A stretch of 64,000 nucleotides of DNA, from contig CM060731.1 of NCBI GenBank assembly GCA_030704615.1, forward strand, positions 78,244,001 to 78,308,000, written 5' to 3'. The notes below the pieces were generated by a model, which saw only the letters and a list, made by a program, of their open reading frames with translations, searched no databases and was not told the DNA's origin. The stretch is from Takakia lepidozioides (lineage: Eukaryota > Plantae > Bryophyta). The translations under genes were made by a program, and so were the position numbers. Shown in pieces: positions 5,370-37,695 of this stretch (positions within the stretch are counted from its first letter, which is position 1; every line of letters begins with the position of its first letter).

Positions 5370-5730
5370 GGACCACGAGGTGTAGACATCCATGGCACAT
5401 GTGGGAGGTGCTCGAGGTTCAAGGGAGTTGGCAGCCAAGGCAGCTGTGATGGATGAGGTTGGGGATTCTTCTCGGGTTGAGGAGGTTCTCAATGATGAGA
5501 TGATGGGGCAGGATGAGGCCTTGTCATTGACTGAGCAGGAAGGGGGTACTGCTCAAGAGGTTGCAGCATAGCAACCACGGGACGCGTCCTCTACCTCTAA
5601 GCCCACTGGACTTAAGGTTGCAGTTACGGAGGACAATTGGGAGCCTGTCATTGGACCCATTGTCACCGGAGGAGAGAGACGACGTATACGGCGGTTCCTG
5701 AGGGCTTACAGGAATTGCTTTGCCTTCAGT

Positions 5731-7054: not shown

Positions 7055-7133
7055 GTCGCAATCCATGCACGAGCCAGCAGGATGACACTGGAGCTCGGTG
7101 GCATGGTGAGACGGACGAGGAGATGGTGCCCGG

Positions 7134-8561: not shown

Positions 8562-8990
8562 TTTTTGTGTTGATTTTGGTTGTCTCAATGCCATGACCAA
8601 AAAGGATGTTTATCCCTTACCACGTACTCATGAGACCTTGGACCAACTCAATGGTGCCACCATCTTTTCATCGTGGATCTAGCTGCTGGATTCTGGCAGG
8701 TTCCTTTGACAGAAGCCTCCAAACACAAGACGACCTTCACTGTAAGTATGGAATATTGTTTCAATTCTAAACTGTGCCATTTGGCCTTTGCAACGCCACC
8801 GGGCCACGACGTTTCAACAATTAATGGATGTGGTTCTTGGCAACCTCAAGTGGGAATGTGCCTTGGTTTATGTCGATGACATTAATGTTTACTCTTCTAG
8901 TTTTTATTCTCACCTGCTGGATCTTCAAAGGGTTTTCTGTAGGCTCAGAGCAGCGGGACTGAAAATTAAGGCAAAGAAATGTGATATTTG
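8562..8990 (+). pseudogene. Fragment of a different gypsy RT replacing the middle of the PHD finger
   Basis: KKDVYPLPR..LDQLNGATIFS, DLAAGFWQV, YVDDINVYS, LRAAGLKIKAKKC; clearly different from the RT at 5731. Confidence 0.85.
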
Positions 8991-9831: not shown

Positions 9832-10966
9832 GTAGTGATTGGGGTGCACGGTTGGTTCAAGGTTATCTTCCTAGTCAAAGAGGGTTCCAGGGAACCCTTG
9901 CTCAAGGTGATGCCAAAAGCGGCATCATGAGCGGTCGCAAGCAATGTTGTTGCAGTAAGGCGATTCGATCCTCGGGGAGGATCGTTCCTTGGCCTTGAAG
10001 TAGGCCAAGAAGAGTGCGCTGGGAGGAGCTGGAGAGGCTCCACCCTTGGCCGGGACTTGGAGGAAGTCGGCCGACCTAGCTAGTGGAGAGTAGAGTCAAG
10101 TGTGGGGTTTGGTTCTTTGCCATGGGACGCCATGGTACGGAAACAAACTCCTTGATGTGGGACGCCACAACTTGGATGTTCGTTTCTACAAAATGGACTA
10201 GTCGATGAGGACATCGACTCCCTGTTGGTAGGGGTGTGTGTCGCGGCCCTTTGCCTTGAGGGCAGGGGGTCGGGACACATGAGGGGCTGCCCCAGTGGTG
10301 GGGGCAGCGGCAACGATAGGTATGGGGGGCTGGAGCACCCTTGACTGCCCAAGGCACTCAAGGAGGCGGAGGCGCTCACTAGGTGGAGCCCCGCACACCG
10401 GGTTGCGGTGGGGGTGGCTCCACAAGGGGTGGTGGTAGCTTAGCGGGACTTAGTGGGGGTGGCATAGGACTCACCATGGGGGCGGAGACCTCGTGGTGGG
10501 AGTCTTGGGGAGTCTTGGGACTCATCACGGTCCATAGGGGCCGTGGTGAGTGGGCCAAGACTCGCCACGACTCATCACCGGGAGTCGAGGGTTTTCGTGG
10601 TGGTTCGCCATAAAATGGCATGGCTGGTTGTGAAACCCCCGCGGACAGCTACAGAAGTATATATAAGGGGAGTAGTGACCCCGAGAACGGTGCAAGCCCA
10701 TTGGTGACCAAAAACTAGTGAGTAAGTGAGCGAGCCGGAAAGCGACCAAAGAGTGGGGAGCTGTTCCGGACTGCCATCTACCAAAGGGAATTCCACTAGG
10801 CCCAAATAGGTGGAGGGTTTAGTGGGAGAGCGAAGGGGGACCGTTATGTCCCGGTGAGCAGCCGAAGCTCCAAGTTGGCCCGGCGGCCAGGTTGGGAGTC
10901 AGGCGCGCGCATCAAAGCGAGTAACTATGACTTGAAGGGGAGCTTACCGACGTGAGGTGCGTGACA
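9832..10966 (+). mobile_element. 3' UTR + PPT + 3' LTR (10239-10966) of the chromovirus family also at 30.2-36.2 kb and 58.3-60.7 kb
   Basis: LTR TGTCGCGG...GCGTGACA; PPT GGTAGGGGTGTG; near-identical to the reverse complement of 30164-31300; TATA-like TATATAAG at ~10660. Confidence 0.92.
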
Positions 10967-11530
10967 GAGATGATTCTGAAGACAAAAATGTAGGATATGA
11001 GTGATGTTGATATGTTCTAAAGTGCAATTGTAAAGATATGCAAATGACTAAAGTGTATGACTGAAACTGTTTCACCGTAATACAGGATAACAGAAACCTA
11101 TCTCTTATGGAAGAGAAAACACACACTAGAGAACAAACCTAGCAGCAAAAGCAAGACTAGACAGACAGTCTAAACAATATAACTGTAAGGTACAACAACA
11201 CAAAAGAGAAAGTGGTACAAAACACACTTATATGCAGAACACTAGCAAATCTTTATAAGCCCCAGACTAGTTTCGCTCAAAACCTGAGCTCTTCAGTGGG
11301 AAGAAAGAAATGGAGTGAAGTACAATGAGCCTCACGCCAGCTTATATACTGTCGAAGGATTTTAATATACTGTCGACAGTTGCTTTGAGATGTTGCAATC
11401 TCTTAAAATCCTTCTTGTATTGTATGAAAGAATTGTCCAGTAACTTTTGAGCAGCCTCCACAAAGGTAGGAGTGTGATCCCGTTTGTTGAAAAACATGCC
11501 CACTCGTGGTCTCGAAGAAGAACACTCCCG
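10967..11530 (-). mobile_element. Inverted PLE segment: ORF1 N-terminal fragment fused to a pLTR (TATA + hammerhead), cut by the chromovirus LTR
   Basis: Minus strand reads RPRVGMFFNKRDHTPTFVEAAQKLLDNSFIQYKKDFKRLQHLKAT (homologous to ORF1 at 38964), then GTATATAAGC, the hammerhead and pLTR-like motifs. Confidence 0.85.
11261..11300 (-). ncRNA. Minimal type I hammerhead ribozyme
   Basis: CCCA-CTGAAGA-GCTCA ggttt TGAGC-GAA-ACTAGT-C^TGGG on the minus strand. Confidence 0.9.
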
Positions 11531-11533
11531 AAT

Positions 11534-13088
11534 TGTGTACGGCTTCCTGCTTTAGAAAGTATCATTGTAGACGGTCACGACATTGTAAAGGCTCGCGTCA
11601 AGGATGTGGTTCGCTCTGCCTTCAAGTCCTCTATTCGAGGTCATCTCAAGACCGCAATGCATGCTCTGACTACAGATGACTCCATCGTCATCAATCCCGC
11701 GGACAAAAATCTTGGGTTGGTGATCATGCGTAAGGATTGGTATATGGATGAGGCACACCGCCAACTCCACGATGGACATGTTTATGAATCTGTGGCAGAG
11801 ATTCCATGGGACAATCTCATTTATGATTTGGATGCAGTGCTCACTTCTGCTTTTATGCGGGGATTAATCGACAAGCAGGAAAATGATTTTTTGGCTTTCA
11901 AGCCCCAAGGGGGCTACCGACCCTGCATGTTCTATCTTGTGCCCAAAATGCACAAACCTGTGGTGGTTGGACCAATTTGTTCGTACAATGGGTACCTTTT
12001 TTAGCACGCATCCAAGTGGTTATATTACCATTTGTTTCCTATTTTGCTTCAGGAACGTAATCATTTGATAGATTCAATTTCTGTGTTGAAAAATTTGTCG
12101 AGTAGACAACTTCCTCGAGATGTGCTTCTATTCACCTTTGATGTGGAGTCATTGTACCCTAGCATTCCTACTGGGGATGGACTTGACGATTGAAGGACAT
12201 GATTACCGGCAAGCTCAAGTCACCCCGGTTTGAATGAGACTCGTCATGAGTCTTTTTCACATGGTCTTGGAGAACAACTATCTTCAATTTGGCTCGAGCT
12301 ATTGGCATCAAATCCAAGGCACTGCAGTGGGTAGCAATTTTGCTGTTGTGTATGCTTGTCTCTTTCTTTGCAGCTTAGAAAGAGAGTTGGCTTGCGCAGC
12401 AAGAGGTATATGATCTTTGTACTACAAGAGATACATCGATGACGGATTTGGAATCTGGGAAGGATCTCGGGCAAGTTTGGAGACTTGGCTCGATCGATAC
12501 AACTTTCTCAGTCCCACAATTCGCATTCAAAGGGTGATCTCTGACTCTACTGTTGACATTCTTGATATTCAATTCTTCAAGGGAGCTGATTTTGTCAATA
12601 GTGGGATTCTATCTTCGAGATGTCATCAGAAGGCACTCAACAGATATCAGTACTTGCCATGGACGTCCTGTCATCCGCGGCACCAAAAATGAGCATTCAT
12701 CATTGGTGAGCTACGCCAATACACTTCAAGAGAAAGCACATGTGCAGGTTTTTCAGAGATCAGACGACTGTTCTATGAATGACTGCGTGCTCGAGGCTAT
12801 CCAAAGTCTTTTATCTTAGAGTGTTTTAGTCTATGTGACTACGGACAACGTGCTACACTGTTAGCTTCAGAATCCACTCGTAAGTTGACGGGCAAGCGGG
12901 CCCCCTTGGTTCTGAAACTTGAGCATTTGCGTTACACTCAAGCTCTAAGCTTTGAGGGAGTCCTAAACCCTAAACTTCATGTGGGTTTTTTGAAAGTTCC
13001 GCAGTTAGCGTCCTTTGACAGACCTATTGTTTGTTGGAAAAAAACGAGGAATTTACGTTCATACTTAGTTCGTGCTAAGTTACAATAG
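11534..13088 (+). pseudogene. Penelope-like RT, no GIY-YIG endonuclease (PLE-B copy 1; 5'-truncated, disrupted)
   Basis: PADKNLGLV, YLVPKMHK, FDVESLY, QGTAVGS, YKRYIDD, LDIQF, SCHP; ends LRSYLVRAKLQ* with no endonuclease. Confidence 0.92.
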
Positions 13089-13568
13089 AGTCAATTATAT
13101 TAAAGGAGATATTCTTGGCTTACAGGCATAAGTTGGAAAAAGACCTTATTTTTTTTTATAAAAGAGAGATTCTTGGCTTACGCGCTTAAGTTGGAAAAAG
13201 AACTTTTTCTTTTCTAGAAAAAGACCTTTTCTCGGCTAAAAGATAATTTTAGTTGTCTTTTTATCTTATGCACTTTTTGAGACATCACTTATTCGACAAT
13301 ATATGGTTTGCATTTGAAACTTGGGTTTTTAAGTCAACATTGCAGACATGGAGCAGTGAGGATGATGACTTGTCTCTTCACTACATCTCAATTTATGGCT
13401 GCATACTGATTGACTGTAATGGTGCCGCAGCCTGCTAAGAGGACAGCATATTCAAGCCTGGGAGCAGACCGAGTCTTCTCTCCTGTGGAGAGGGAGCTTG
13501 TTTCTGACATTGTGAGTTTCTGGCCCTGATCTGAAAGTTCTATGTGCATGTGACAAAAATATATCAAC

Positions 13569-13712
13569 AAAAAAAGCATATGAGAAGACTCCTAGGAATA
13601 GGACACCACCCAGGAACCGGGGAGAAGAGTATGCCACACCCGTCAGTAGCAAGATTCGACCCCAGAATTGTCTCGGTCGCACTTACTGCACTTAGCCAAC
13701 TGAGCTACCGAC
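13569..13712 (-). mobile_element. tRNA-derived SINE-like / Pol III unit (copy 1)
   Basis: A box TAGCTCAGTTGG, B-box-like GGGTCGAATCT, T7 end on the minus strand. Confidence 0.65.
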
Positions 13713-14318
13713 TGTTGGTTTTTAATTTCCGAATGGGAAATCACTGCAGAGAAGCCAACACAAGGAATCTGATACTCAGAGTGCCTGCACATCTTCCAAT
13801 GACATGAAAAACTCTGGTCTACAACTCCTAGTAGAAGTCTATCTTAACGCTATTTGGTTCACTTGACTCACCGCCAAGTGTAGCCAAAACAAAACTTCAA
13901 GAATATTCACACCTAATCTCGATTCTCAATGGCACCTGATGCACTACAACACACAACCACGCCTTGGTGTTGAACCAATTGACCTGCCGACTCCCCTGGA
14001 AACAAAATTATTCTGGAATATCTTGCAAACATGTCACACCATCGTATCATGCAGTGTAACACAAAGCTGATGAACTCATTGATTGGTTCATGAAAACATA
14101 CTTGTCATTAATTTGTGTCCCTTTTTCACAGGTTCTTGAAGTTGGTCCATGGTTGAATACAGAAGCAGTCTAACTTAGTAGTATACTTCTATAGCGTGGA
14201 AAGGTGTGACAACAACAAGAGAATATGGAAATGTCACCAAACACAAAAAAATAGAGCCAGTATCCCAATGAATCTCACCTTCTCAATACTCCATGAGCCA
14301 TCACAAAATTTGTCCCCG

Positions 14319-16628
14319 TCACTCCTTGATAAAACGTAAGAAATCACATATTACGCGGTCAAACAAATCCTCCGCTTCTACCTGTCCAATATAGCCAATT
14401 AAACGATTATCTTGGCATTCAGATTGGAGTTCAGCTGGCTTCTTTGCAGGATAGGCAACTACCAAGCTGATGCAACCATCTTTGCATGCGGCAAGCACCC
14501 TCGTTTTAGACTCGGAACTATTCTTGTACATCTGTTCCGGATCTGTAGTTGCCACTGCTCTAGCCCACTGCACCTCAGATCGCAGCTTCAGTTGACAGAA
14601 GACAGGAATCTTCAAATTCCCAAGTCTCACAACAAAAAGAACATCAGCTCCAGATCTGTCGTAAAAAATGAGGCATGGCGGACGAGATTTCTCTTCAGCA
14701 TCAAGAAATTTACTTACGGTGTGGATCCTATATGACTCCCTCCACACTCCTTCACCTTCACCGGTAATCGTTGGCTTGTCCCTTGCGAATTTTGGAGGCA
14801 GGGTTGCATCCTTGAAACAACACATATCGGCCAACAATTTTGTGCCGTCAAACAGCTTGGCCACATGAACTGTGAAAAGTTTCTCCCATGCCCTACCCAT
14901 TGCACTGGGATCATCCTTGCAATCAACCATGTAGTCTTTAAGTGATTTCTCAAATGAATGGTTGATCGTCAAGTAGTTCATGATGCTATGATGGACTGTC
15001 GGTTCGACTATAGAGAAAGTGAATTGGGAACCTATTGAATGGTGTAGCTGTCCAAGGCCACACTCGAGCAAAGTCATATCTCCGTCCGTTGAAACGGTAT
15101 GTTCTCCCCTCCCTGCATAGGCAAAGGAGGTTCCTATTCTTTGCACCAAGGAAGCACCATTGAATGATTCTTCTTTCAGGACAAATGTGCCTTTTGCTCC
15201 ACACAGAGCGCTCACAGCATAATAAATGGAAGTGCTGTCATTGGTGTTGCTTGTGATCTCCTTGAAATAGTTGTCTACTACCGTTATATCCCATCTTCCT
15301 CCAGCCTTCCTCAGAAGGCGCTCGACACAACTTACCAAACACCTTCGACGGCCTCTAAATTTTTCCAGCAGATACTGGGCATTGTCCTCCATATGATCAT
15401 CCTCTAGCTTCAGGTACTCGCTGCAGAATTTCGGAACCTGACGCACATCTGTCCATGAAGAAAATGGAGCAGAAGAAAATTGAACCGGGCCACCACCCCC
15501 TTCTTTTGCAATCAGCGAACCTATGTCCGCTTCCAGCTTCAAAAAGCTGACACCTGTACCAGCAACAAATACTTTCTGCTTTGGCAACGCCGTAGATGGC
15601 CCCACTAGGGCTTTGATCAACGGAGAAAAAATGGACCTTAGCTCTTTCGTCTCAGGGGATTCATAGTCATTTACATTTTTCCTTCCCAACACCTGCGCTT
15701 CATCCAGAACTACAGTGAAAGTGCCAACCTCCCCCTCTAAATCCGTCCACAGTTTTTTTATCCTAGCATTTAGCCCCTCTGAATCTTCCAGGGAAGTAAC
15801 CACGTCAAAAAGTTCCCGAGTAAGCACATCATATAGATCGTTACGATCTGCACCAAGGAAAGCACGGAATTGCACCTGGAGCATGAGCCATTGCAGAGGA
15901 CTCAAATCAGGAATTTCTTGGTGACAAAATTCCAAGATTAACAACCTTGAAAGAATGGCACACCTCATACGTTTCATCACATTCCTGTGATTCATTGCCT
16001 TATCGACCTCTATCTCATGAGAACTCACAGAGGCGACATCATCTGACCCACCGTTTCCTTTGGTTTTAGCTGTCCAAAAAAACCCCCACTTCTCTGCAAG
16101 CAGCTCGTAAAGAAACCGAGTTTTCCCACTCCCACTCACTCCAACAACTGGCACAACACCAGTCGAGCCATCATTCGCTCGTTCCCACAAATCACCAACA
16201 TCTTCAGTCCAACGAGCAGTTAATTTATCCAGTTAAATGCTTGGATAACCACGGTGGTCGAGTGGCACACCGTTCTGTATAGACAAATTGCACCCCATCT
16301 TTTTGAACGTGTCCAAAAACTCAGAAAATTTCAATTTCCATTTTTGCATAACCACCTTCACTGATTCTGTAAGCAAAACCCACACACTTTCCGTCACTCC
16401 TGACAGATCCATGTATCTGAAGAAAAATAAGAGCATCCTATCTAGCAAATAGTTGAACAATACAAAAGATACACCAACAAAGCCTATGACCAAAGAAAAT
16501 GCAAAGAGAAGGGGAACATGGAAGGGAAGGCCAAGTAACACAGTAGCTCTACCTGAAAACCCGTTTCCAGAGGTTTTCAATCTCTTCGCAGATCTCTCTC
16601 CCCCTGCAAATATGTCAGATTTTGTCAA
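14319..16628 (-). pseudogene. Crinkler (CR)-type P-loop NTPase + PD-(D/E)xK REase-fold protein; in-frame TAA at 16233-16235; 5' exon structure uncertain
   Basis: Walker A GVSGSGKT, WGFFW, GSDD, PLQWLMLQ, Walker B VVLDEAQ, VAGTG, RGRRR; C-terminal GRAWE...GADVLFVV...PVFCQLK; ORFs 16233..16628 and 14319..16190 share a frame; possible GT donor at 16552. Confidence 0.75.
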
Positions 16629-16706
16629 ATTTCAAACGATTTGCATTCATCCAAACTCTTACCATGGAATTACTGATGAAACTGTTGTTGTATGGCAGCA
16701 TCCTGT

Positions 16707-16724
16707 AACCCTAAACCCTAAACC
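16707..16724 (+). repeat. Short telomeric repeat, C-rich on +
   Basis: AACCCTAAACCCTAAACC. Confidence 0.8.
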
Positions 16725-17415
16725 GAGGACAAACTAAATTATCTGAGCACACACCGATCTCTATCAGTCATGGAATATTCAGAAGTTTTCAATCTCTTCC
16801 CAAATCCTAAACCACGGCTGGGAGATGTCAGTCCCAGATGTGGGCAGGTTTAAAGTGTTCTGCGTTCTTGTCTTCTTTTCTCTGTTTTTTCGTTCAATTT
16901 TTTTCTTCGAATACCGCTGCTGATGCTGGGATCTTTTCTTGATACTTTTGATAGCTAGGGTTTTTTTATTTCACGCTACAAGTATCAGTAATTCTTAACA
17001 TTCAAAAGTCCACAAACGATCACTATCACTTCTATTAGCAACCCCCTTGTGAGAAGGAAGCGACAAGAGAAGGGCAGAGATAACTAAGAAAGAGGAGGTC
17101 TCTAAGAAAAAGGAGAACATTGATGGGATTGTAGGAGGAAACTCGCTCTGACATGTGCCAATAGAGCAGGATTAGACTGGATATTTCAAGCAGAGTGAAT
17201 CACATGGTCTTAATTTGGGCCTCCAATTCTTTTGGAGCAATCAGAGATTGATCAACAAGTAGCATATTGGTGTGAGGTAGATATAGAGTCATTTCAATCG
17301 CATAATGTCCTTCTTTAATTTTTTAACCATCTCATAAAACTCAGCACACAACATCACTTCAAACAGGGTTTAAGTCTCAGATCTTGTGAGAAGAAAAGAT
17401 GTCCTAACCTGGTCA

Positions 17416-17429
17416 GGTTTAGGGTTTAG
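17416..17429 (+). repeat. Short telomeric repeat, G-rich on +, at a segment junction
   Basis: GGTTTAGGGTTTAG directly before the segment shared with 27483 onward. Confidence 0.7.
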
Positions 17430-20400
17430 AGTTTGTCGTCACCGGATCATTTGCTCCTTTTGAAGAGGAAATGATAATATTAGGTATGACTTCAGAATCC
17501 TTGGTTGATTATGATCTCAAATGCCAATGAGCAGCTTGTCTTCTAACGCATTCCTTCGTCAGGTGCAAGAACCTTCTGTGACAGTGTTCACCCATTAGCT
17601 AGGGTGTCAGATAGTGTGTCATGGAGAGAGTCTGGTGAATGTCGATGGGTTGCGCCCGTTTGTTTTTATGTCTGCAATTCTGGTGATGGGCAGGCACATT
17701 TGAATTCTTGCAAGACAATTGGGCAGTTGATTGTTGAAACCGCTGCAGTTGCTGATTTGTTCAATGCATAGCTTGGAGTCAAGTGTTTGCAATTTTTTTG
17801 GTTTCTTGGCTGCGTTGTGCACTCAGGGTTTCAACAGCTTCTCCCAATCCCGTGTGTGATCCTGTGTACGGTTGATACACGCAGTTTATTCATTCGATAG
17901 ATCCATGTTAACAAGTAATATATGAGGAGGGTCCTTTGAAAGACACGGTTGTTTGTTATTTATATGGCTCTACAGCAGATTACTTAAGTTTTTCCTTATC
18001 TGGTTATCTGTAGTTACTCCTGATGAATGAGTGAGTTCTCTTTGTTTCCTTTCCCTGCAATATCCTGCAGGTAGGCATCACCCAGGGTAATTCTCTAGAA
18101 TGTATTTTCTAGAACGATGCTAATCAGGCTGCTCATAGAGCTGTCGAGCAGTCTGATAAGAGCCAGCGTATGGCAGCGTCCAATTTATATTCCTAGTCAT
18201 TTTGTTGGTTGATAGATTGATGCGGGCAGCGCCTCCTACCCTCAGAGAATGGCTGAAGAAAAAGTTGCCGGATCATGTTCTATGGTTTTGAGTTGCCATT
18301 TTGTTGAGCTTGCTGCATTGCACTGCTTCTTGGAAATGTCTGGCCGTGAACCTTTGTGGGCACTTTTCGTGCAAGGTCAGAGGGCAAGCCCTTCTGAATC
18401 TCTTGAAGCGCAGTGGTCGGTCAGATTGCGGCAGATGATGGCAGGTTTAAAGTGTTGTGTGGCCTGAAACCCTAACTCTAAACCGTCATTTTGGTAGTTC
18501 ACTTGTGAGTGATTGCCGTCCTCGCATCCACTTCTATTTTTATTGTGAGGGAGAGGGAGTCTTCCTTTGTGTCTCTGGAGCTCTCTTGGATTTTTTGCAT
18601 CCATAACCATAACCGCAACAGTTTTGGACGGGCTCAATGGCATCCCAAGAGTATGTACAGGGTTAGGGTTTCAAATCTTCATCTGATTTTTGTTACGTCT
18701 CTTGCTTCTTGGTTGAACGGTGTTGTGTCTGTCTTCGCAGGCTACTTTCTTTGTGGGATTGTTGGTTATGGAAACCATGGTTGATGGTTTAGGGTGTCAG
18801 ATAGTGCGTCAAGGAGGGAGTCTGGTGAGTGTAAGTTTGTAGGGTTTGCTACCAATGTGTGAAGAATGAGTTTCTGTTCTCTCTTCAGTACTTTGATGCA
18901 TGTGACCTGCGAATCAGTAGTGTTGTTCAAACCTTTACGATTTCTTGAGTACCATCTTCAGAAGATAGAAAGCTCTAGCCGAAATTGTGCGCATGTTTTG
19001 AGCTGTTAATTGGTCGATGACAGAATGTGGTTGTTGGTGACTTATGTGAGTTAACCAAAACCGCCTTGGCTGCAGAACCTTCTGTGACAGAGTTCACCCA
19101 TTAGCTAGGGTGTCAGATAGTGCGTCATGGAGAGAGTCTGGTGAATGTCGATGGGTTGCCTAGGGCAGTCTGAGCCCGTTTGTTTTTATGTCTGCAATTC
19201 TGATGATGGGCAGGCACATTTGAATTCTCGCAAGACAATTGGGCAGTTGATTGTTGAACCTGCTGCAGTTGCTGATTTGTGATTCGTTCAATGCGTAGCT
19301 TGGAGTCAAGTGTTTGCAATTTTTTTGGTTTCTTGGCTGCGTTGTGCACTCAGGGTTTCAACAGCTTCTCCCAATCCCGTGTGTGATCCTGTGTACGGTT
19401 GATACATGCAGTTTATTCATTCGATAGATCCATGTTAACAAGTAAAATATGAGGGGGGTCCTTTGAAAGACACGGTTGTTTGTTAGGACAGGGTATTTCA
19501 AACTGAATCTAGTATCTTGAGATATTTGCATATTTTTAGCATTACAAGCAGCTTCTTGGTAGCGTCAGTACTTTGATGCATGTGACCTGCGAATCAGTAG
19601 TGTTGTTCAAACCTTTACGATTTCTTGAGTACCATCTTCAGAGGATAGAAAGCTCTAGCCGAAATTGTGCGCATGTTTTGAGCCGTTAATTGGTCGATGA
19701 CAGAATGTGGTTGTTGGTGACTTACGTAGCCTTGTGGACATTGACCCCGCGCCCAGTTTGAGCGGGAACAAAAGGGATAGAACCTACCTCTGTCAGGGGC
19801 TGACGTTGGTAGTAAGACTTACCTTGATATATAGAATTAATCCGGGTTTTCCAGATATCCTCTAGAAATCCCTTCACACAAGCATCAATCTGCTGTGTGT
19901 GGCCTCAGCAGGGCCTGGGCTTTCGGCTCAGCCTCGAGACTTTCAAAGTTGGTAAACAGGGGTACAGGCACAATTCCCTTGATAGATTTGAAGAGAGCGT
20001 CTCTTTGGTGAGAGAACCCTGGACAGTGTATCAAAAAATGAATACTGTCTTCAGATTGCCCACACAACGGGCAATTGCACTCTCTCTTTCCTCTCTGCTT
20101 CTGTTTGCTGTTCAAAGGTAGGCTTCCTGCCCTGAGTTTAAATTTCAGTCTAGTGCCGAGAGTGGGTAGACCCTTGAGGTCATCCAAGATGTCCTCCCCC
20201 ATGTCACTGACTGGAAACAGGTTCAGGGAAGTTTTCTGCCTATTCATTTTTATCAGACAATCTCATGGCAAAAGACATGGCTTTGGACACTACAGCCTCT
20301 AAGTCAGATTTATCCAGCAGGGTCAAAACTTGCGGCTCCAGGTCCAGGTCCTTGAGAATCTCTTCTACTCTCTTCTGCCAGGACTTAGCCTGTTTGACAG

Positions 20401-21361
20401 GGCGGTCCTGTTTCCAAGATATAGAGTCGATTAACTTAGGATATCTGGTGTTGGGCATATGTTGCAGCTGACCCCACCATCTGACCTTGAATTCATCTCG
20501 TCGGGAGCTTAAGGACGGAATGCCAAAGATTCAAGATAGAACAACAATAGAACAATAGTGGAAAGAAAAGGGACAATTCTTCGTGATTAGTTTGTTTCTT
20601 AGCTATGACTAGTGTTAGGGTAGTGACGTGCGGTTAACGATTTCCCTTTGAAGGTGGGGTTACTTTATTTTCATACTTGCCCTCTAGACACCCGATGACA
20701 ATGCAAATCAATATGGGGATTTGTTTAATCAAGAGGGAGTTCTGCTGCTTGGGAGCGATTCCTTGGACCCAGGAGACTATACCTTTAAGCAGGTTGATGC
20801 TCCTTCAACAACAGACACAAGTAAAGGCAGTGGTAAACCCTTCTCCCTGTCATCGGGGTTTTGTCATCGGGATAATTTAGGTTTTCCTGTGGCGGTCTGA
20901 GTTTCTTAGGGCTCTGCGGCCTGAGTTTGCTGATAGTGAGGTTTAAGTACTTAGGGTTTGTTGTCACCAGATCGTTTCAAGGTTATTGAAAGCTTTGCAA
21001 ACTTTGTGAGGCAGGCAGAAGCTCCACTTGCCTTCACTCCATAAATTTTTGCAAGGCTTTCGTAGCAAGGGTTGTAGGGTATGTCTTCTTGTACTTACTG
21101 GAGCTGTTTGTCCCGTAGGTTATGTTTACTCCCGCAGACTTATGTGAGTTAACCAAAACCGCCTTGGCTGCAAAACCTTCTGTGGCAGTGTTCACCCATT
21201 AGCTAGGGTGTCAGATAGTGCGTCATGGAGAGAGTCTGGTGAATGTCGATGGGTTGCCTAGGGCAGTCTGAGCCCGTTTGTTTTTATGTCTGCAATTCTG
21301 ATGATGGGCAGGCACATTTGAATTCTTGATGGGCAGTTGATTGTTGAACCCGCTGCAGTTG
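17424..21361. repeat. Patchwork of 100-1250 bp segments, repeated in different order here and at 27405-30163
   Basis: Approximate matches: 17569-17960 with 19074-19484, 21172-21361 and 28050-28415; 18316-18700 with 27665-28049; 18886-19045 with 19566-19723; 19725-20965 with 28919-30163. Confidence 0.85.
19725..20535 (-). mobile_element. 3' fragment of a non-LTR retrotransposon ORF2 (copy 1)
   Basis: RWWGQL, KSWQKRV, KLRAGSLPL, C-terminal knuckle CPLCGQSEDSIHFLIHC. Confidence 0.8.
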
Positions 21362-21861
21362 NNNNNNNNNNNNNNNNNNNNNNNNNNNNNNNNNNNNNNN
21401 NNNNNNNNNNNNNNNNNNNNNNNNNNNNNNNNNNNNNNNNNNNNNNNNNNNNNNNNNNNNNNNNNNNNNNNNNNNNNNNNNNNNNNNNNNNNNNNNNNNN
21501 NNNNNNNNNNNNNNNNNNNNNNNNNNNNNNNNNNNNNNNNNNNNNNNNNNNNNNNNNNNNNNNNNNNNNNNNNNNNNNNNNNNNNNNNNNNNNNNNNNNN
21601 NNNNNNNNNNNNNNNNNNNNNNNNNNNNNNNNNNNNNNNNNNNNNNNNNNNNNNNNNNNNNNNNNNNNNNNNNNNNNNNNNNNNNNNNNNNNNNNNNNNN
21701 NNNNNNNNNNNNNNNNNNNNNNNNNNNNNNNNNNNNNNNNNNNNNNNNNNNNNNNNNNNNNNNNNNNNNNNNNNNNNNNNNNNNNNNNNNNNNNNNNNNN
21801 NNNNNNNNNNNNNNNNNNNNNNNNNNNNNNNNNNNNNNNNNNNNNNNNNNNNNNNNNNNNN
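21362..21861. other. Assembly gap (500 N)
   Basis: N run. Confidence 1.
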
Positions 21862-23185
21862 CCCCGAGACGAAAGAGCTAAGGTCCATTTTTTCTCCGTT
21901 GATCAAAGCCCTAGTGGGGCCATCTATGGCATTGCCAAAGCAGAAAGTATTTGTTGCTGGTACATGTGTCAGCTTTTTGAAGCTGGAAGCGGACATAGGT
22001 TCGCTGATTGCAAAAGAAGGGGGTGGTGGCCCGGTTCAATTTTCTTCATGGACAAATGTGCGTCAGGTTCTGAAATTCTGCAGCGAGTACCTGAAGCTAG
22101 AGGATGATCATATGGAGGACAATGCCCAGTATCTGCTGGAAAAGTTCAGAGGCCGTCGAAGGTGTTTGGTAAGTTGTGTCGAGCGCCTTCTGAGGAAGGC
22201 TGGAGGAAGATGGGATATAACGGTAGTAGACAACTATTTCAAGGAGATCACAAGCAACACCAATGACAGCACTTCCATTTATTATGCTGTGAGCGCTCTG
22301 TGTGGAGCAAAAGGAACATTTGTCCTGAAAGAAGAATCATTCAATGGTGCTTCCTTGGTGCAAAGAATAGGAACCTCCTTTGCCTATGCAGGGAGGGGAG
22401 AACATACCATTTCAACGGACGGAGATATGACTTTGCTCGAGTGTGGCCTTGGACAGCTACACCATTCAACAGGTTCCCAATTCACTTTCTCTATAGTCGA
22501 ACCGACAGTCCATCATAGCATCATGAACTATTTGACGATCAACCATTCATTTGAGAAATCACTTAAAGACTACATGGTTGATTGCAAGGATGATCCCAGT
22601 GCAATGGGTAGGGCATGGGAGAAACTTTTCACAGTTCATGTGGCCAAGCTGTTTGACGGCACAAAATTGTTGGCCGATATGTGCTGTTTCAAGGATGCAA
22701 CCCTGCCTCCAAAATTCGCAAGGGACAAGCCAACGATTACCGGTGAAGGTGAAGGAGTGTGGAGGGAGTCATATAGGATCCACACCGTAAGTAAATTTCT
22801 TGATGCTGAAGAGAAATCTCGTCCGCCATGCCTCATTTTTGACGACAGATCTGGAGTTGATGTTCTTTTTGTTGTGAGACTTGGGAATTTGAAGATTCCT
22901 ATCTTCTGTCAACTGAAGCTGCGATCTGAGGTGCAGTGGGCTAGAGCAGTGGCAACTACAGATCCGGAACAGATGTACAAGAATAGTTCCGAGTCCAAAA
23001 CGAGGGCGCTTGCCGCATGCAAAGATGGTTGTATCAGCTTGGTAGTTGCCTATCCTGCAAAGAAGCCAGCTAAACTCCAATCTGAATGCCAAGATAATCG
23101 TTTAATTGGCTATATTGGACAGGTAGAAGCGGAGGATTTGTTTGACCGCGTGTTATGTGATTTCTTACGTTCTATCAAGGAGTGA
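21862..23185 (+). CDS. CR-type NTPase+REase gene, copy 2 (5' part lost in the gap)
   Basis: Near-identical to the 14319-16190 product from PETKELRSIF to the C-terminus; open across the visible part. Confidence 0.8.
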
Positions 23186-23836
23186 CGGGGACAAATTTTG
23201 TGATGGCTCATGGAGTATTGAGAAGGTGAGATTCATTGGGATACTGGCTCTATTTTTTTGTGTTTGGTGACATTTCTATATTCTCTTGATGCTGTCACAC
23301 CTTTCCACGCTATAGAAATATACTACTAAGTTAGACTGCTTCTGTATTCAACCATGGACCAACTTCAAGAACCTGTGAAAAAGGGACACAAATTAATGAC
23401 AAGTATGTTTTCATGAACCAATCAATGAGTTCATCAGCTTTGTGTTACACTGCATGACACGATGGTGTGACAAGTTTGCAGGATATTCCAGAATAATTTT
23501 GTTTCCAGGGGAGTCGGCAGGTCAATTGGTTCAACACCAAGGCGTGGTTGTGTGTTGTAGTGCACTGGGCATCGGGTGCCATTGAGAATCGAGATTAGGT
23601 GTGAATATTCTTGAAGTTTTGTTTTGGCTACACTTGGCGGTGAGTCAAGTGAACCAAAGAGCGTTAAGATAGACTTCTACTAGGAATTGTAGACCAGAGT
23701 TTTTCATGTCATTGGAAGACGTGCAGGCACTCTGAGTATCAGATTCCTTGTGTGTGTTGACGTTGGCTTCTCTACAGTGATTTCCGTGATCACTTTTGAT
23801 TTTTGTGATTTACCATTCGGAAATTAAAAACCAACA

Positions 23837-23980
23837 GTCGGTAGCTCAGTTGGCTAAGTGCACTAAGTGCGACCGAGACGATTCTGGGGTCGAATCTTGC
23901 TACTGACGGGTGTGGCATACTCTTCTCCCCGGTTCCTAGGTGGTGTCCCGTTCCTACGAGTCTTCTCATATGCTTTTTTT
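23837..23980 (+). mobile_element. tRNA-derived SINE-like / Pol III unit (copy 2)
   Basis: A box 23842-23853, B-box-like 23887-23897, GTCGGTAG/CTACTGAC stem, T7 at 23974-23980. Confidence 0.65.
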
Positions 23981-24445
23981 GTTGATATATTTCTGTCACA
24001 TGCACATAGAACTTTCAGATCAGGGCCAGAAACTCACAATGTCAGAAACAAACTCCCTCTCCATAGGAGAGAAGACTCGGTCTGCTCCCAGGCTTGAATA
24101 TGCTGTCCTCTTAGCAGGCTGCAGCACCACTACAGTCAATCAGTTTGCAGCCATAAACTGAGATGTAGTGAAGGTCGTCATCCTCACTGCTCCATGTCTG
24201 TAACGCTCCATGTCTGTAAGTTTCAAATGCAAACCTTATAATAAGTGATGTCTCAAAAAGTGCATAAGATAAAAAGACAACTAAAAGTATCTTTTAGCCG
24301 AGAAAAGGTCTTTTTCTAGAAAAGAAAAAGTTCTTTTTCCAACTTAAGCCTATAAGCCAAGAATATCTCTTTTCTAAAAAAGAAAAAGGTCTTTTTTCCA
24401 ACTTATGCCGGTAAGCCAAGAATATCTCTTTTAATATAATTGACT

Positions 24446-27340
24446 CTATTGTAACTTAGCACGAACTAAATAGGAACGTAAATTCCTCGTTTTTTTCCAA
24501 CAAACCATAGGTTTGTCATAAGATGCTAGCTGCGGAACTTTCAAAAGATGCTCATGCAGTTTAGGGTTTAGGACTCCCCCAAGGTTTAGAGCTTTGAGTA
24601 TATCGAGAATGCTCAAGTTTCAAAACCAAGGGGGCCCGCTTACCCATCAACTTACGAGTGGATTCTGAAGCTAACAGTGTAGCACATTGTGCGTAGTCAC
24701 ATAGACTAAAACACTCTAAGATAAAAGACTTTGGATAGCCTCGAGCACGCAGTCGTTCATAGAACAGTCGTCTGATCTCTGAAAAACCTGCACATGTGCT
24801 TTCTCTCAAAGTGTATCGGCGTAGCTCACCAATGATGAATGCTCGTTTTTGGTGTCACGGATGACAAGACGTCCATGGCAAGTACTGATATCTGTTGAGT
24901 GCCTTCTGATGACATCTCGAAGATAAAATCCCACTATTGACAAAATCAGCTCCCTTGAAGAATTGAATATCAAGAATGTCAACAGTAGAGTCAGATATCA
25001 CCCTTTGAATGCGAATTGTGGGATTGAGAGAGTTGTATCGATCGAGCCAAGTCTCCAAACTTGCCCGAGATCCTTCCCAGATTCCAAATCCGTCATCGAT
25101 GTATCTCTTGTAGTACAAATGCCATATACCTCTTGTTGCGCAAGCCAACTCTCTTTCTAAGCTCCAAAGAAAGAGATAAGCATACACAACAGCAAAATTG
25201 CTACCCATTGCAGTGCGTCGGATTTGATGCCAATAGCTCGAGCCAAATTGAAGATAGTTGTTCTCCAAGACCATGTGAGAAAGACTCATGACGAGTCCTA
25301 CCTCTTGCTGCGCAAACCAACTCTTTTTTTAAGCTGCAAAGAAAGAGACAAGCATACACAACAGTAAAATTGCTACCCATTGCAGTGCCTCGGATTTGAT
25401 GGCAATAGCTCGAGCCAAATTGAAGATAGCTATTCTCCAAGACCATGTGAGAAAGACTCATGACGAGTCCTTCAAACCGGGGTGACTTGAGCTTGCCGGT
25501 AATCATGTCCTTCAATCGTCGAAGCCCGTCCCCAGTAGGAATGCTAGGGTACAATGACTCCACATCAAAGGTGAATAGAAACACATCTCGAGGAAGTTGT
25601 CTACTCGACAGATCTTTCAACAAAGAAATTGAATCTATCAAATGATTACGTTCTTGAAGCAAAATATGAAACAAATGGTAATGTAACCACTTGGATGCGT
25701 GCTCAAAAAGGTACCCATTGTACGAACAAATTGGTCTCCCAACCACCACAGGTTTGTGCATTTTGGGCACAAGATAGAACATGCAGGGTTGGTAACCCCC
25801 TCGGGGCTTGAAAGCCAAAAAATCCTTTTCCTGCTTGTCGATTAATCCCTGCATAAAAGCAGAAATGAGCACTGCATCCAAATCATACTTGAGATTGTCC
25901 CATGGAATCTCTGCCACAGATACATAAACCTGTCCATCGTGGAGTTGGCGGTGTGCCTCATCCATGTACCAATCCTTACGCATGATCACCAACCCACGAT
26001 TTTTGTCCGCGGGGTTGATGACGATGGAGTCATCTGTAGTCACTAGCACGCATTGCAGTCTTGAGATGACCTCGAATAGAGGACTTGAAGGCAGAGCGAA
26101 CCACATCCTTGAAGCGAGCCTTTACAATGTCGCGACCGTCTGCAATGATACTTTCTAAAGCAGGAAGCCGTACACACTGATCCCAAGAAGGGTTAGGGAC
26201 TCTAAATGGAGGAATGGGTCTATCTCTAGCATCACGGGAGTGATGTCGAAGACGTAAAGATCGAGCAAAAGCCTCATAAGCATCAAGAATAGAAGTAGTA
26301 GATGGAGGAGTAGGATGTTTAATGAAGCTCAAACCTAAGCCTAAAAGCTTCTTTTCAAAACAAGAGAGTGGTCGATTGGCCATGTTGTGGATGGCCACAT
26401 TGGTTAACCTATTCTCTACCTGAGAGACTCTCTTGCCAGAGAAAAGAAAAAGCTTATAGGCCTCTACATCCTTCAACGGCCACCAAAACAGCTTGCGGGC
26501 TCTTTTCGATTTGATCCTACCCAAGTTACCTTCTTTTTGGGCTTCTGTTGTGGGCTTTGCCCCGACTTTTGTTTGCCAAAACCATGAGGGGTCTGAGAAT
26601 GCAGGGCGGATTTGCTCGGAGAAGAGAAACGCGATGCAGCGGAACGGATGCGAGCAATCCCACTCCGCTGCTGTCCATTTCCCTGTTGCTTGAAAGAACT
26701 TGCTTTGGAATTTGGTGAAGTGTCTCTTGTAGGTTGAGCCTTAGGAGGTTGACAGCAATTGAGCGGCCATGTTGTCGTTGCTTCTGACGGTTAGGAGAAG
26801 GAGAACGCGGTCGTTGTTTAGGGGAGAGAGAAGAGTTATTCCCTTTGGAGGAAAATTGCTTCTGCACCTCTTTCCTAACAAGCTCGGCAATGGAAGGCTC
26901 GCACGGAAGAACATCAGCATCTGCCATGGCGGCATCCTTAGCGCGATTCTTTTCACGCAAAGCCGTTTCCCTCACAGTGGTTGCCAAGTTGTGGTTAGCA
27001 CAAAAATAAGAGATTCCAGCAAACCAAGACTTGGTGGCTTCAGTGCATACAAACTCAAGCTCCTCGAAAATCCAAATAGAGTCCTCATCTTTGTCAAGAC
27101 AAGAAGAGACGTCCACATGGGATCTGATCTCCTGGAGTCGAGCAATGAAAAGATCAAATGATTTGCTCAAAGTGGTTTCTGCTTCTGCCAACACCTCCAC
27201 ATGAGCCTTGATGAAGGCTTTTTGTAAAGTGTTATGGAAAGCAAGAGTGGCTGATTGAATGCTTGCATCAAGGGAAGGTCGAACGGCCAAAGAGGAGAAG
27301 AAATTCACAAGCTTAGGAGAAGAAATTCTACAAGCATGAG
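24446..27340 (-). mobile_element. PLE-B copy 2: ORF1 (5'-truncated) + endonuclease-less RT, disrupted; 172-bp internal tandem duplication 25127-25298/25299-25470
   Basis: ORF 26526..27308 is homologous to 38964..39920; ORFs 26030..26524, 25201..26106, 24855..25289 and 24561..24809 tile the RT. Confidence 0.92.
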
Positions 27341-27404
27341 GTTTTTCAGAGATCAGACGACTGTTCTATGAACGACTGCGTGCTCGAGGCTATCCAAAGT
27401 TTTT
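27341..27404 (+). repeat. Short inverted PLE RT fragment at the 5' truncation point of PLE-B copy 2
   Basis: GTTTTTCAGAGATCAGACGACTG...TATCCAAAGT matches 12748-12808. Confidence 0.85.
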
Positions 27405-28899
27405 ACAGCACCTGATCCTTGTGGTGGTATGAGTTTCTTAGGGTTCTGCGGCCTGAGTTTACTGATAGTGAGGTTCAAGTACTTAGAGTTTGTCGTCACC
27501 AGATCATTTGCTCCTTTTGAAGAGGAAATGATAATATTAGTTATGACTTCAGAATCCTTGGTTGATTATGATCTCAAATGCCCATGAGCAGCATATTATT
27601 TGTATGTGGAATTCTGGTTGCCGACACACTCGTTTTGGAGTAAGGGTTTTCACAAGGATTATATGCATTGCACTGCTTCTTGGAAATGTCTGCCCGTGAA
27701 CCTTTGTGGGCACTTTTCGTGCGAGGTCAGAGGGCAAGCCCTTCTGAATCTCTTGAAGCGCAGTGGTCGGTCAGATTGCGGCAGATGATGGCAGGTTTAA
27801 AGTGTTGTGTGGCCTGAAACCCTAACTCTAAACCGTCATTTTGGTAGTTCACTTGTGAGTGATTGCCGTCCTCCATCCACTTCTATTTTTATTGTGAGGG
27901 AGAGGGAGCCTTCCTTTGTGTCTCTGGAGCTCTCTTGGATTTTTTGCATCCATAACCATATCCGTAACAGTTTTGGACGGGCTCAATGGCATCCCGAGAG
28001 TATGTACAGAGTTCGGGTTTCAAATCTTCATCTGATTTTTGTTACGTCTCTGAATGTCGATGGGTTGAATGTCGATGGGTTGCCTAGGGCAGTCTGAGCC
28101 CGTTTGTTTTTATGTCTGCAATTCTGATTGTGGGCAGGCACATTTGAATTCTTGCAAGACAATTGGGCAGTTGATTGTTGAACCCGCTGCAGTTGCTGAT
28201 TTGTTCAATGATTCGTTCAATGCGTAGTTTGGAGTCAAATGTTTGCAATTTTTTCGGTTTCTTGGCTGCGTTGTGCACTCAGGGTTTCAACAGCTTCTCC
28301 CAATCCCATGTGTGATCCTGTGTTCGGTTGATACACGCAGTTTATTCATTCGATAGATCCATGTTAACAAGTAAAATATGAGGAGGGTCCTTTGAAAGAC
28401 ACGGTTGTTTGTTATTGATGTGTGGAATTGTGGTTGTGCACTACATGATAGATGCAACTCAACAACATGGGTTGGCTGTTGTGGGGATACTTCTCAAAGA
28501 TTTTGTAGCACCTACAGCATGTAGTAGGGTTTTGCTTTTCTTCCTGCTTTTGTTGCTTTTCTTTGTTTTTCTGTCTTGAGTTCAAGTAGTTTAAGCAGTC
28601 AATGAACACAAGGTCAGGTGCTTAAGGTTTGCAAATAATTTATTTATTCTGTAGGATGGAATCTGCTCAGATTCAAGATTGGATTGGATTGTAAGGAATC
28701 TCTGCATTTCAGTATGGTCTGTGATTGACCCTCATGCTTTTCTATACCTTCTCTCTTGCTTTTGTTGCTTTTCTTTGTTTTTCTGTCTTGAGTTCGAGTA
28801 GTGCAAGCAGTCAATGAACAGAAGGTCAAGTGCTTAGGGTTTGCAAATAATTTATTTATTCCATAGGATGGAATCTGCTCAGATTCAAGATAGATTGTA

Positions 28900-29735
28900 C
28901 TCATAGGACGTTGTTTGCCGTAGCCTTGTGGACATTGACCCCGCGCCCAGTTTGAGCGGGAACAAAAGGGATAGAACCTACCTCTGTTAGGGGCTGACGT
29001 TGGTAGTAAGACTTACCTTGATATATAGAATTAATCCGGGTTTTCCATATATCCTCTAGAAATCCCTTCACACAAGCTTCAATTTGCTGTAAGTGATTTG
29101 CCCAAAAACTAGGCCTCAGCAGGGCCTGGGCTTTCGGATCAGCCTCGAGACTTTCAAAGTTGGTAAACAAGGGTACAAGCACAATTCCCTTGATAGATTT
29201 GAAGATTGGTGAGAGAACCCTGGACAGTGTATCTGAAAATGAATATTGTCTTCAGATTGCCCACACAACGGGCAATTGCACTCTCCCTTTCCTCTCTGCT
29301 TCTGTTTGTTGTTCAAAGGTAGGCTTCTTGCCCTGAGTTTAAATTTCAGTCTAGTGCCGAGAGTGGGTAGACCCTTGAGGTCATCCAAGATGTCCACCCC
29401 CATGTCACTAACTGGAAACAGGTTCAGGGAAGTTTTCTGCCTAACTTCATTTTCATCAGACAATCTCATGGCAAAAGACATGGCTTTGGACACTACAGCC
29501 TCTAAGTCAGATTTATCCAGCAGGGTCAAGACTTGCGGCTCTAGGTCTAGGTCCTTGAGAATCTCTTCTACTCTTTTCTGCCAAGACTTAGCTTGTTTGA
29601 CAGGGCGGTCCTGTTTCCAAGATATAGAGTCGATTAACTTAGTATATCTGGTGTTGGGCATATCTTGCAGCTGACCCCACCATCTGACCTTGAATTCATC
29701 TCGTCGGGAGCTTAAGGACGGAATGCCAAAGATTC
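28900..29735 (-). mobile_element. 3' fragment of a non-LTR retrotransposon ORF2 (copy 2)
   Basis: Same as copy 1; CPLCGQSEDNIHFQIHC, FLEDIWKTR. Confidence 0.8.
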
Positions 29736-31796
29736 AAGATAAAACAACAATAGAACAATAGTGGAAAGAAAAGGGACAATTCTTCATGATTAGTTTGTTT
29801 CTTAGCTATGACTAGTGTTAGGGTAGTGACGTGCAGTTAACGATCTCCCTTTGAAGGTGGGGTTACTTTATTTTCATACTTGCCCTCTAGACACCCGATG
29901 ACAATGCAAATCAATATGGGGATTTGTTTGATCAAGAGGGAGTTCTGCTGCTTGGGAGCGATTCCTTGGACCCAGGAGACTATACCTTTAAGCAGGTTGA
30001 TGCTCCTTCAGCAACAGACACAAGTAAAGGCAGTGGTAAACCCTTCTCCGTGTCATCGGGGTTTTGTCATCGGGATAATTTAGGTTTCCTGTGGCGGTCT
30101 GAGTTTCTTAAGGCTCTGCGGCCTGAATTTGCTGATAGTGAGGTTTAAGTACTTAGGGTTTGTTGTCGCGCACCTCACTTCGGTAAGTTCCCCCCTCAAG
30201 TCATAGTTACTCGCTTGATGCGCGCGCCTAACTCCCAACCTGGCCGCCGGGCCAACTTGGAGCTTCGGCTGCTCACCGGGGCATAACGGTCCCCCCTATG
30301 ATCTCCCAAAGAACCCTTCACCCCTTCGGAACCAGCGGAATTCCCTTTGGTAGTTGGTAGTCCGGAACAGCTCCCCACTCTTTGGTCGCTTTTCGGCTCG
30401 CTCGTTTACTCACTAGTTTTTGGTCACCAACGGGCTTGCACCGTTCTCGGGGTTACTACTCCCTATATATACTTCTGTAGCTGTCCGCGGGGGTTTCACA
30501 AACAACCATGCCATTTTATGGCGAACCACCACAAACACCCTCGACTCCCGGTGACGAGTCGCGGTGAGTTTTGGCCAACCCACCACGGCCCCTATGGACC
30601 GTGATGAGTCCCAAGACTCCCCACGACTCCCACCACGAGGTCTCCGCCCCAGGGTGAGTCCTATGCCACCCCCACTAAGTCCGGCTAAGCTACCACCACC
30701 CCTTGTGGAGCCACCCCCACCGCAACCCGGTGTGCGGGGCTCCACCTAGTGAGCGCCTCCGCCTCTTTGAGTGCCTTGGGCACTCAAGGGTGCTTCAGCC
30801 CCTCATACCTATCGCTGCCACTGCCCCCACCACAGGGGCAGCCCCTCTTGTGTCCCGACCCTCCTGCCCTCAAGGCAAAGGCCCGCGACACACACCCCTA
30901 CCAACAGGGAGTCGATGTCCTCATCGGCTTGTCCATTTTGTGGAAACGAACATCCAAGTTGTGGCATCCCACATCAAGGAGTTTGTTTCCGTACCATGGC
31001 GTCCCATGGCAAAGAACCAAACCCCACACTTGACTCTACTCTCCACTAGCTAGTTCGGCCGACTTCCTCCAAGTCCCGGCCAAGGGTGGAGCCTCTCAAG
31101 CTCCTCCCAGTGCACTCTTCTTGGCCTACTTCCAGGCCAAGGAACGATCCTCCCCGAGGATCGAATCGCCTTACTGCAACAACATTGCTTGCGACCGCTC
31201 ATGATGCCGCTTTTGGCATCACCTTGAGCAAGGGTTCACCTCGAACCCTCTTTGACTAGGAAGATAACCTTGAACCAACCGCGCGCCCCAATCACTACAA
31301 TTGGGTCCGCCTTGGAATGCTGGCCTGAGGTACGGGAACACGCCGAAGCCGCACTACGACTTCGTCCCGAGGCTACACGATTATAGTACGTGAACGGAAG
31401 CAGGTAGCTTCCGTGTTAGCCCGCACTACAAGGCAACCCCCTCGGTAGCGCAGTTATAGTACGCGCACGCGCCAGGTGCGCACTAGCACGTGAACTCCTA
31501 AAGAAGGCGCAAGTTTCATTGCCCCTTGGATGGGAGTCACCCGATTTCGGCACTGCGCAAACACACGATTAACCCAATTTACCTCTCCCACTTTTGTAAG
31601 CTAGCATGCATCCTACACACTAGCCAACCACACCATGCATCACCATTCCAAACAAAATAGGACGCACAACATTTGGAATCCATTTCTTTTATAACAAATT
31701 TTTGTACAATACAAGTTTTTGCAATCAGATTCCTAAGCTAGCTAAGCCAGGCTAAGCATGCATTTCCTCCCCCACGCTCCAAGGTTGATGTCCCCA

Positions 31797-35883: not shown

Positions 35884-35924
35884 GATGAGGCCAATCCCAA
35901 GGACGATTGCGTACTGAACTCTAT

Positions 35925-35936
35925 GCTCTGATACCA
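35925..35936 (-). promoter_or_regulatory. Primer binding site (tRNA-iMet)
   Basis: TGGTATCAGAGC, 2 nt after the LTR end ...GCGCGACA. Confidence 0.95.
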
Positions 35937-37585: not shown

Positions 37586-37606
37586 CCCTAAACCCTAAAC
37601 CCTAAA
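37577..37606 (+). repeat. Telomeric run (CCCTAAA)4
   Basis: Direct reading. Confidence 0.95.
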
Positions 37607-37695
37607 ACTTGTTTGCCCGGATCGTGTTTATCTTGCACCCGGTGCATCCGCGTTGTACTTCTACACTTGTTTTGACGCTTTATGTGAACCCTAAA
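37600..37695 (+). mobile_element. ~95-bp extreme 3' end of the non-autonomous unit, between two telomeric runs
   Basis: Matches ~37490-37585. Confidence 0.85.

Follow-up and report, generated by a model that had tools for sequence, protein, structure and literature searches.

The closest described relatives of the element reported here are the Penelope-like elements (PLEs) that lack an endonuclease (EN-minus). Those of the Athena/Coprina type, with their relatives in Selaginella and conifers, carry the same TERT-like reverse transcriptase (RT) without GIY-YIG, in a layout of two open reading frames (ORFs) (PMC8557442). The Terminons of bdelloid rotifers likewise combine an EN-minus RT with extra ORFs, and host genes are captured between neighbouring elements (PMC6431247), while in Adineta vaga a PLE copied a member of a large nonribosomal peptide synthetase (NRPS) family with its introns kept (PMC3846280). 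CR/Crinkler proteins, among them trypanosome RHS and teleost AACRNL, form another set of systems, in which a P-loop nucleoside triphosphatase (NTPase) is joined to a restriction endonuclease (REase)-type motif. Genes of the CR type occur in land plants and in helitron-rich regions (PMC5289972), a retroelement hot spot lies in RHS genes (PMC7563717), and AACRNL is flanked by hAT/mariner elements (PMC12957317). Here we analyse a window of 64,000 nucleotides from the seed-free land plant Takakia lepidozioides, in which two inverted copies of an EN-minus PLE (PLE-B) each meet a convergent Crinkler-like (CR) gene for an NTPase with a predicted REase domain. The sequence-only reading of this DNA knew of no described PLE-Crinkler association, and none of the papers that we read in searching for one describes it either. 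Gene capture by PLEs has been published, as has the carriage of CR genes by other mobile DNA, and we therefore regard the locus as a new pairing of known kinds.

We favour, at a probability of about 0.45, a single tail-to-tail fusion of PLE-B with a CR gene that was then copied several times by the element's then-working RT, with the CR gene as a passenger. The two copies and the pieces beside them are as follows.

10972-11356, minus strand: inverted pseudo-long terminal repeat (pseudo-LTR) piece, from TATA box through hammerhead, aligning with 42256-42710 of the sister element PLE-A; an LTR cuts its left side.
11371-11520, minus strand: inverted PLE ORF1 piece, 110/150 identical to PLE-A 39082-39231.
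11534-13088, plus strand: copy 1 PLE-B RT, 5′-truncated, disabled and EN-minus, 86% identical to PLE-A.
13089-13303, plus strand: copy 1 PLE-B's own 3′ repeat, a 58-bp tandem as in PLE-A, ending at a TATA box that is the fusion point.
13304-14318, minus strand: 3′ flank and untranslated region of the CR gene, with a tRNA-like short interspersed element (SINE) at about 13593-13719; RNA-type contigs cover 13433-14310.
14319-16366, minus strand: copy 1 coding exon for the CR-like NTPase and predicted REase, with an in-frame stop at 16233-16235.
16367-16806, minus strand: copy 1 CR intron (16367-16552), small exon (16553-16603) and upstream intron, broken off at 16806.
21862-23185, plus strand: copy 2 CR-like gene, open in its visible part; its 5′ part lies behind the N gap 21362-21861.
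23186-24445, plus strand: copy 2 CR 3′ flank followed, past a fusion point near 24236, by the minus-strand PLE-B 3′ repeat.
24446-27340, minus strand: copy 2 PLE-B, nearly full-length and disabled, ORF1 and RT in two frames, with a 172-bp duplication at 25127-25471.
27339-27404, plus strand: inverted 66-bp RT piece at the 5′ end of copy 2, 98.5% identical to copy 2 and 97% to copy 1.

The inverted copies (12238-15657 and 25297-21862) align at 94.3% over 3,468 columns, and in both of them a disabled RT is followed by 1.2 kb of intervening sequence and then by a convergent ORF, which bears out the arrangement of RT, spacer and CR gene first described from the letters. We cross-checked the locus against contigs of public runs, of which X3 and X1 are one sample, X5 comes from a separate study, and X6 and X7 are guessed to be of RNA type. 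A contig covering 13227-13332 bridges the fusion junction in both X3 and X1, the joint of the 172-bp duplication also occurs in X3, and an X5 contig contains the left junction of copy 1 (11418-12184). That copy 2 adjoins a 500-N gap inside a repeat patchwork might suggest that the second copy or the junction was made by faulty assembly near the gap. However, the copies differ at 150 of 4,093 sites, all three joints are present in public runs, and mis-assembly is unlikely because the runs that bear the junction differ from the window at many sites; we consider such an artefact very improbable. Nor is the fusion confined to one assembly: a different sample bears the junction at a depth of several copies, copies 1 and 2 begin at different 5′ positions, and an X5 contig shows the junction with a third left flank, departing at 13274, 26 bp before the junction.

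The character of the element is clearest from its sister, PLE-A, which is 86% identical to PLE-B.

37711-42903, plus strand: PLE-A, the sister reference element, with an upstream pseudo-LTR, two ORFs, a hammerhead at 42317-42342 and (CCCTAAA)3 at 42880-42900.

The seven best Foldseek matches to the model of the PLE-A RT (predicted local distance difference test, pLDDT, 90.6) are all telomerases, GIY-YIG (PF01541) is found in 1 of 53 RT homologues (402-1280 aa), and the ORF stops after the thumb, so the assignment to EN-minus PLEs stands. Named RT homologues come from Selaginella, Cryptomeria, Ginkgo and Closterium, and no RT relatives were found in viral contigs. The frame offset between ORF1 and RT is the same in PLE-A and copy 2, as in a two-ORF layout. 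PLE-A ends in a hammerhead core with reverse-complement telomeric repeats; its Rfam match alone is weak (E 0.91), and the folding energies of the hammerheads are no stronger than those of shuffles. A profile built from the window's own hammerheads finds five strong sites in the window and none downstream of either PLE-B RT in the visible sequence (500 N bases being unseen). PLE-A and its non-autonomous relatives form a head-to-tail array at 36252-44714 (plus strand) with hammerheads and (CCCTAAA)n ends, apparently away from any present telomere because the array sits between an LTR element and host genes (B3, RPA70). The best named matches of RPA70 are in Diphasiastrum and Sphagnum, and of the CR protein in Ceratodon (58-59%); context from other species consists of two distant metagenome loci at 26% identity.

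The point of fusion can be placed within the 1.2-kb spacer, which is composite: about 210 bp of PLE-B 3′ repeat followed by about 1 kb of CR 3′ flank. The sequence-only reading was right that the RT stop (13086-13088) is where nucleotide similarity to PLE-A fades, but it missed that the first 210 bp or so beyond this stop still belong to PLE-B. In PLE-A, as in the inverted piece 10972-11356 (hammerhead core 11271-11296), the TATA box precedes the hammerhead; the fusion thus removed the hammerhead and telomeric end from the PLE-B copies. In X5, a contig that covers 13205-13294 goes on into the hammerhead piece (joint 11335-13294; one contig, depth 2.5), so a PLE-B-like copy with the normal hammerhead end exists, even though both copies in the window are without it. 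Among RNA-type contigs none crosses the junction (13167-13386) in X6 or X7, a blank that carries no evidential weight. The tRNA-like SINE (13593-13719, minus strand) is present in the CR 3′ flank of both copies, has A- and B-box-like motifs as read from its letters, and reaches a summed X3 depth of about 20,000, with loose ends on both sides.

Several observations argue that the fused unit was spread by reverse transcription. In PLE-A coordinates copy 1 starts at 40459 and copy 2 near 39264; an inverted PLE piece lies beside each start, and inverted pieces at 5′ ends are a known PLE trait (PMC8557442). These differing 5′ ends, the inverted 5′ pieces and the third left flank favour retrotransposition. 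The lesions of the two RTs had been claimed to be private, and this holds: the TAG at 12002-12004 is one of four private stops of copy 1 in the compared codons, the 172-bp duplication belongs to copy 2 alone, and there is no stop or frameshift common to both PLE-B RTs. Of strongly conserved columns, amino-acid changes common to the copies hit 1 of 49 and changes between the copies 8 of 46 (Fisher p 0.014). Together with the absence of a common lesion, this indicates that the RT was probably intact at the time of the split and was disabled only afterwards. The ratio of nonsynonymous to synonymous change (dN/dS) of the RT is 0.74 between copies (p 0.28 versus neutral) and 0.20-0.21 against PLE-A; both RTs decayed neutrally after the split. 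Over stretches in which copy 2 shows 60 differences from copy 1, four X3 contigs show 28, the pattern expected of copies radiating from one source; these near-ancestral contigs represent young copies or else consensus paths through copies that have decayed. PLEs are able to mobilise host genes that contain introns (PMC3846280).

According to the account that we favour, transcription of a source copy would have run on through the CR gene in antisense, and we propose that the CR introns were kept because the read-through was antisense to CR. The RT would then have copied the read-through RNA into breaks, giving 5′-truncated copies with inverted PLE pieces. Such copies would have been dead ends, because, we propose, they could not rebuild a promoter without the 3′ repeat. 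Gene conversion or selection may have kept their CR halves similar to the large, expressed CR family, and some of the copies would later have been duplicated again as DNA.

A close rival, in our estimate somewhat less probable, is that the junction is a scar, left when a fresh PLE-B next to a CR gene suffered breaks at ORF1 and at the TATA box and was rejoined in one DNA rearrangement; the resulting fossil would then have hitch-hiked on CR duplications, whether segmental, repair-driven or CR-driven. Duplications of these kinds probably acted later in any case. Much of what speaks for this scar also weighs against retrotransposition, and we gather these points here. The left fragment comprises ORF1 up to A39231 and the part from the TATA box onward, and copy 2 holds almost exactly what lies between, from about A39264 as far as the TATA box; this complementarity, observed after the fact, points to DNA rearrangement at this locus. 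The two inverted left pieces join directly at a TCGACA microhomology, and microhomology joints of this sort would be at home in such a rearrangement. At its right end copy 1 carries a 49-bp local inversion (X5 joint 16806-16883), a feature that resembles DNA repair more than it does primed reverse transcription. We found no 3′ end for the unit; that of copy 2 lies in the gap. In the published rotifer case both pseudo-LTRs frame the captured gene and the elements are EN-plus (PMC3846280).

Divergence between the copies is also uneven. It amounts to 113 of 2,062 sites (5.5%) left of about 13611 and 37 of 2,031 (1.8%) to the right, with a support interval for the breakpoint of 13419-13756, and 0 of 300 permutations reach the step, which demands a process beyond simple copying. 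Methylation-driven mutation was considered and rejected as its source, since the step persists without CG/CHG transitions (p 1.6e-6). The CR coding part has a dN/dS of 0.37 between copies (p 0.022), and its synonymous divergence (10 of 295 sites) is not clearly different from that of the RT, so selection alone could explain the lower divergence there. The CR 3′ flank differs at 17 of 724 sites (p 0.007), so that constraint or conversion is needed in that part. A neutral RT beside a constrained CR gene fits a fossil carried along by CR duplication.

Copy numbers bear on the same question. They are taken from contig depth, which is not true copy number, and the contigs are possibly consensus paths. 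Likely single-copy pieces have a depth of about 33 in X1 and 44-60 in X3. On this scale the junction contig (137 in X1, 262 in X3) corresponds to about 4-6 copies, the 172-bp joint (179 in X3) to about 3-4, and the CR contigs of X3 (1,182-1,646, 4-6 times deeper than the junction) to about 20-35 near-identical copies. Because the 172-bp duplication shifts the frame and yet stands at depth 179, dead copies have probably also multiplied as DNA. Among the matches listed, other CR copies depart from the window sequence at 13431 and 13593, and other PLE-B-like copies at 13101 and 13139; most of the near-identical CR copies appear not to be linked to PLE-B, and the CR family appears to have been amplified recently. 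The depth of the CR contigs, these other CR flanks, the several-copy depth of the 172-bp joint and the place of the CR gene in an old Selaginella-Ceratodon clade (below) would all suit DNA duplication. Against it, every duplication would have to start before the RT had gained any common lesion, and the near-ancestral contigs, the three left ends and the inverted 5′ pieces are simpler under retrotransposition.

The cargo is supported as a Crinkler-related NTPase gene with a predicted nuclease domain, on the evidence of motifs and of a structure model. Its ORF encodes 637 aa with a predicted fold of pLDDT 91.3. Structure searches identify the N-terminal part as a STAND/AAA+-type NTPase (2qen, Z 15.2, root-mean-square deviation 4.8, 305 aligned), with further matches to NLR, Cdc6 and TnsC folds. 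The Walker A K37 is kept in 62 of 63 rows and the Walker B DE in 76 of 77. C-terminal residues E450 (71/83), D530 (78/83), Q547 (80/83) and K549 (76/83) fall in a predicted core of a helix and three strands, and we take them to be a PD-(D/E)xK-type site; catalytic-type residues are retained in both copies. The NTPase half of the earlier domain call is thus upheld, and the REase domain is predicted from motif and predicted topology rather than confirmed as a fold. The REase part has no match in Pfam, PADLOC or PDB sequences, searches with the whole model (the domain was not folded alone) returned ATPase matches, and structure leads from the Atlas were mixed, including an RHSP cluster at 0.84.

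The CR family has 1,655 representatives at E 0.001. We scanned 38 homologues, picked mainly for length from 150 listed and from a further search: the Crinkler header PF20147 occurs in 9 of 38, a SAM domain in 2 and an RT domain in none, and PF20147 and SAM are absent from the named plant relatives (Ceratodon, Selaginella). A quick tree (27 rows) places the window protein together with those of Ceratodon and Selaginella (support 100), and CR is therefore an old plant family. The splice joint 16366-16553 is present in X6 and X7 (depths of 145 and 334) and keeps the register of the Ceratodon protein, and CR contigs have loose ends at 16604/16606. A search with the upstream exons of RNA-type contigs did not find a first exon or header exon of CR in the window, and the putative spliced transcripts appear to derive from loci with exons and flanks absent from it. 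The family has at least two different upstream exons and may be mobile in its own right.

The most ambitious proposal of the sequence-only reading was a working composite whose cargo supplies breaks or acts as a toxin. A Terminon-like unit of this kind, with an intact RT and a complete CR gene, could exist elsewhere in the genome, its nuclease making non-telomeric breaks or poisoning cells that lose it. The near-ancestral X3 contigs, with similar depth over RT and junction (262-355), would suit it, as would the catalytic-type residues in both CR copies, the resemblance of the NTPase to TnsC-type transposon ATPases among others, and the fact that PLE-A and its relatives adjoin ordinary host genes in the window. 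We nevertheless think it unlikely. Both visible RTs are dead, the CR gene of copy 1 is broken, CR has a history of its own and most of its copies appear unlinked, and no hammerhead or complete 3′ repeat follows the RT. Accessory ORFs of Terminons are co-oriented with the RT, whereas the present cargo is antisense to it. Moreover, an EN-minus PLE needs no nuclease of its own, since any double-strand break can serve it for priming (PMC3846280). It would be similarly surprising, in our estimate, if a plant EN-minus PLE lineage had given up the hammerhead-telomere end in exchange for a complete CR gene, used the nuclease of that gene to spread away from telomeres, and was itself one engine of the 20-35-copy CR family.

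The outer limits of the unit are less sharp than its junction. An end at about 16.7k had been claimed, and an X5 contig continues past this point to 16806; the CCCTAAA pair at 16709-16722 (plus strand), which lies within the upstream CR intron and was considered as a 3′ end, was rejected on the same grounds, with a 3′-end profile at E 0.14. Termini of the CR gene's own, which would have made it an independent insertion, were also sought: nothing convincing by way of terminal inverted repeats or target-site duplications was found in 13050-17450, its 5′ end being outside view. Beyond copy 1 the sequence continues as follows.

16835-21361, plus strand: patchwork of repeat pieces upstream of the copy 2 CR gene, likely shuffled CR-family 5′ DNA and a LINE-like fragment.

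Within this patchwork, contig evidence connects only the 49-bp piece 16835-16883 with the CR gene. A second patchwork (27405-30163, plus strand) consists of the same shuffled pieces, so that the two flank copy 2. Both are TAGGGT-rich on one strand (2.4 and 1.8 per kb versus 0.1-0.3), and a LINE-like C-terminal cysteine motif lies at 29116-29733. Telomere-primed assembly of the patchwork was rejected: breakpoints are not enriched for telomere-like motifs (3/27 and 3/23; background 0.097).

Other elements fill much of the remaining window. An LTR retrotransposon at 1372-8573 (plus strand) has gag, protease, RT and integrase in Ty3/gypsy order, with a C5 cytosine methyltransferase fragment (4203-4679; PF00145, E 5.7e-9) between protease and RT; methyltransferase-bearing retrotransposons, named Copia and DIRS, have been reported in streptophytes (PMC12344493). 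A chromodomain LTR retrotransposon family is represented at 30164-36178 (minus strand) and 58304-60741 (plus strand), with related LTRs at 9832-10966, 30164-31298 and 58304-59032. A 136-bp tandem repeat (61872-62785, 6.5 copies) adjoins a frame at 63155-63961 that looks PPR-like by its sequence and has no Pfam match.

If the fusion was indeed copied by the RT, EN-minus Penelope elements can transport, downstream of the RT, several kilobases of a host gene with its introns, and can do so without their own 3′ repeat; this would provide a route by which Crinkler-like genes are amplified in land plants, as well as a plant counterpart of gene capture by rotifer elements. If it was instead duplicated as DNA, the locus is an ordinary fossil in a repeat-rich region, and if an armed element does exist, it would be the first retroelement to carry a Crinkler nuclease, and would give the transposon-to-toxin model a living link. 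Either way, the window holds an EN-minus family in good preservation, complete with hammerheads and telomeric ends, beside host genes, together with an expressed and recently amplified CR family, useful for tests of nuclease-free insertion.

Set against the known systems, PLE-B departs from elements of the Athena/Coprina type in that its copies are without the hammerhead-telomeric end and run into an antisense gene. Terminons close in a hammerhead and telomeric repeat, and the cargo listed for them does not include an NTPase-REase gene (PMC6431247); the PLE-B cargo, unlike theirs, is antisense and downstream of the RT, and the visible sequence holds no intact unit and no hammerhead after the cargo. 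The NRPS case, which it resembles in the copying of a large-family member, was EN-plus, in trans, framed by pseudo-LTRs and marked by a target-site duplication (PMC3846280), none of which was found for PLE-B/CR. From the described Crinkler systems, finally, the gene differs in having no header exon in the window and in its partner, which here is a Penelope element.

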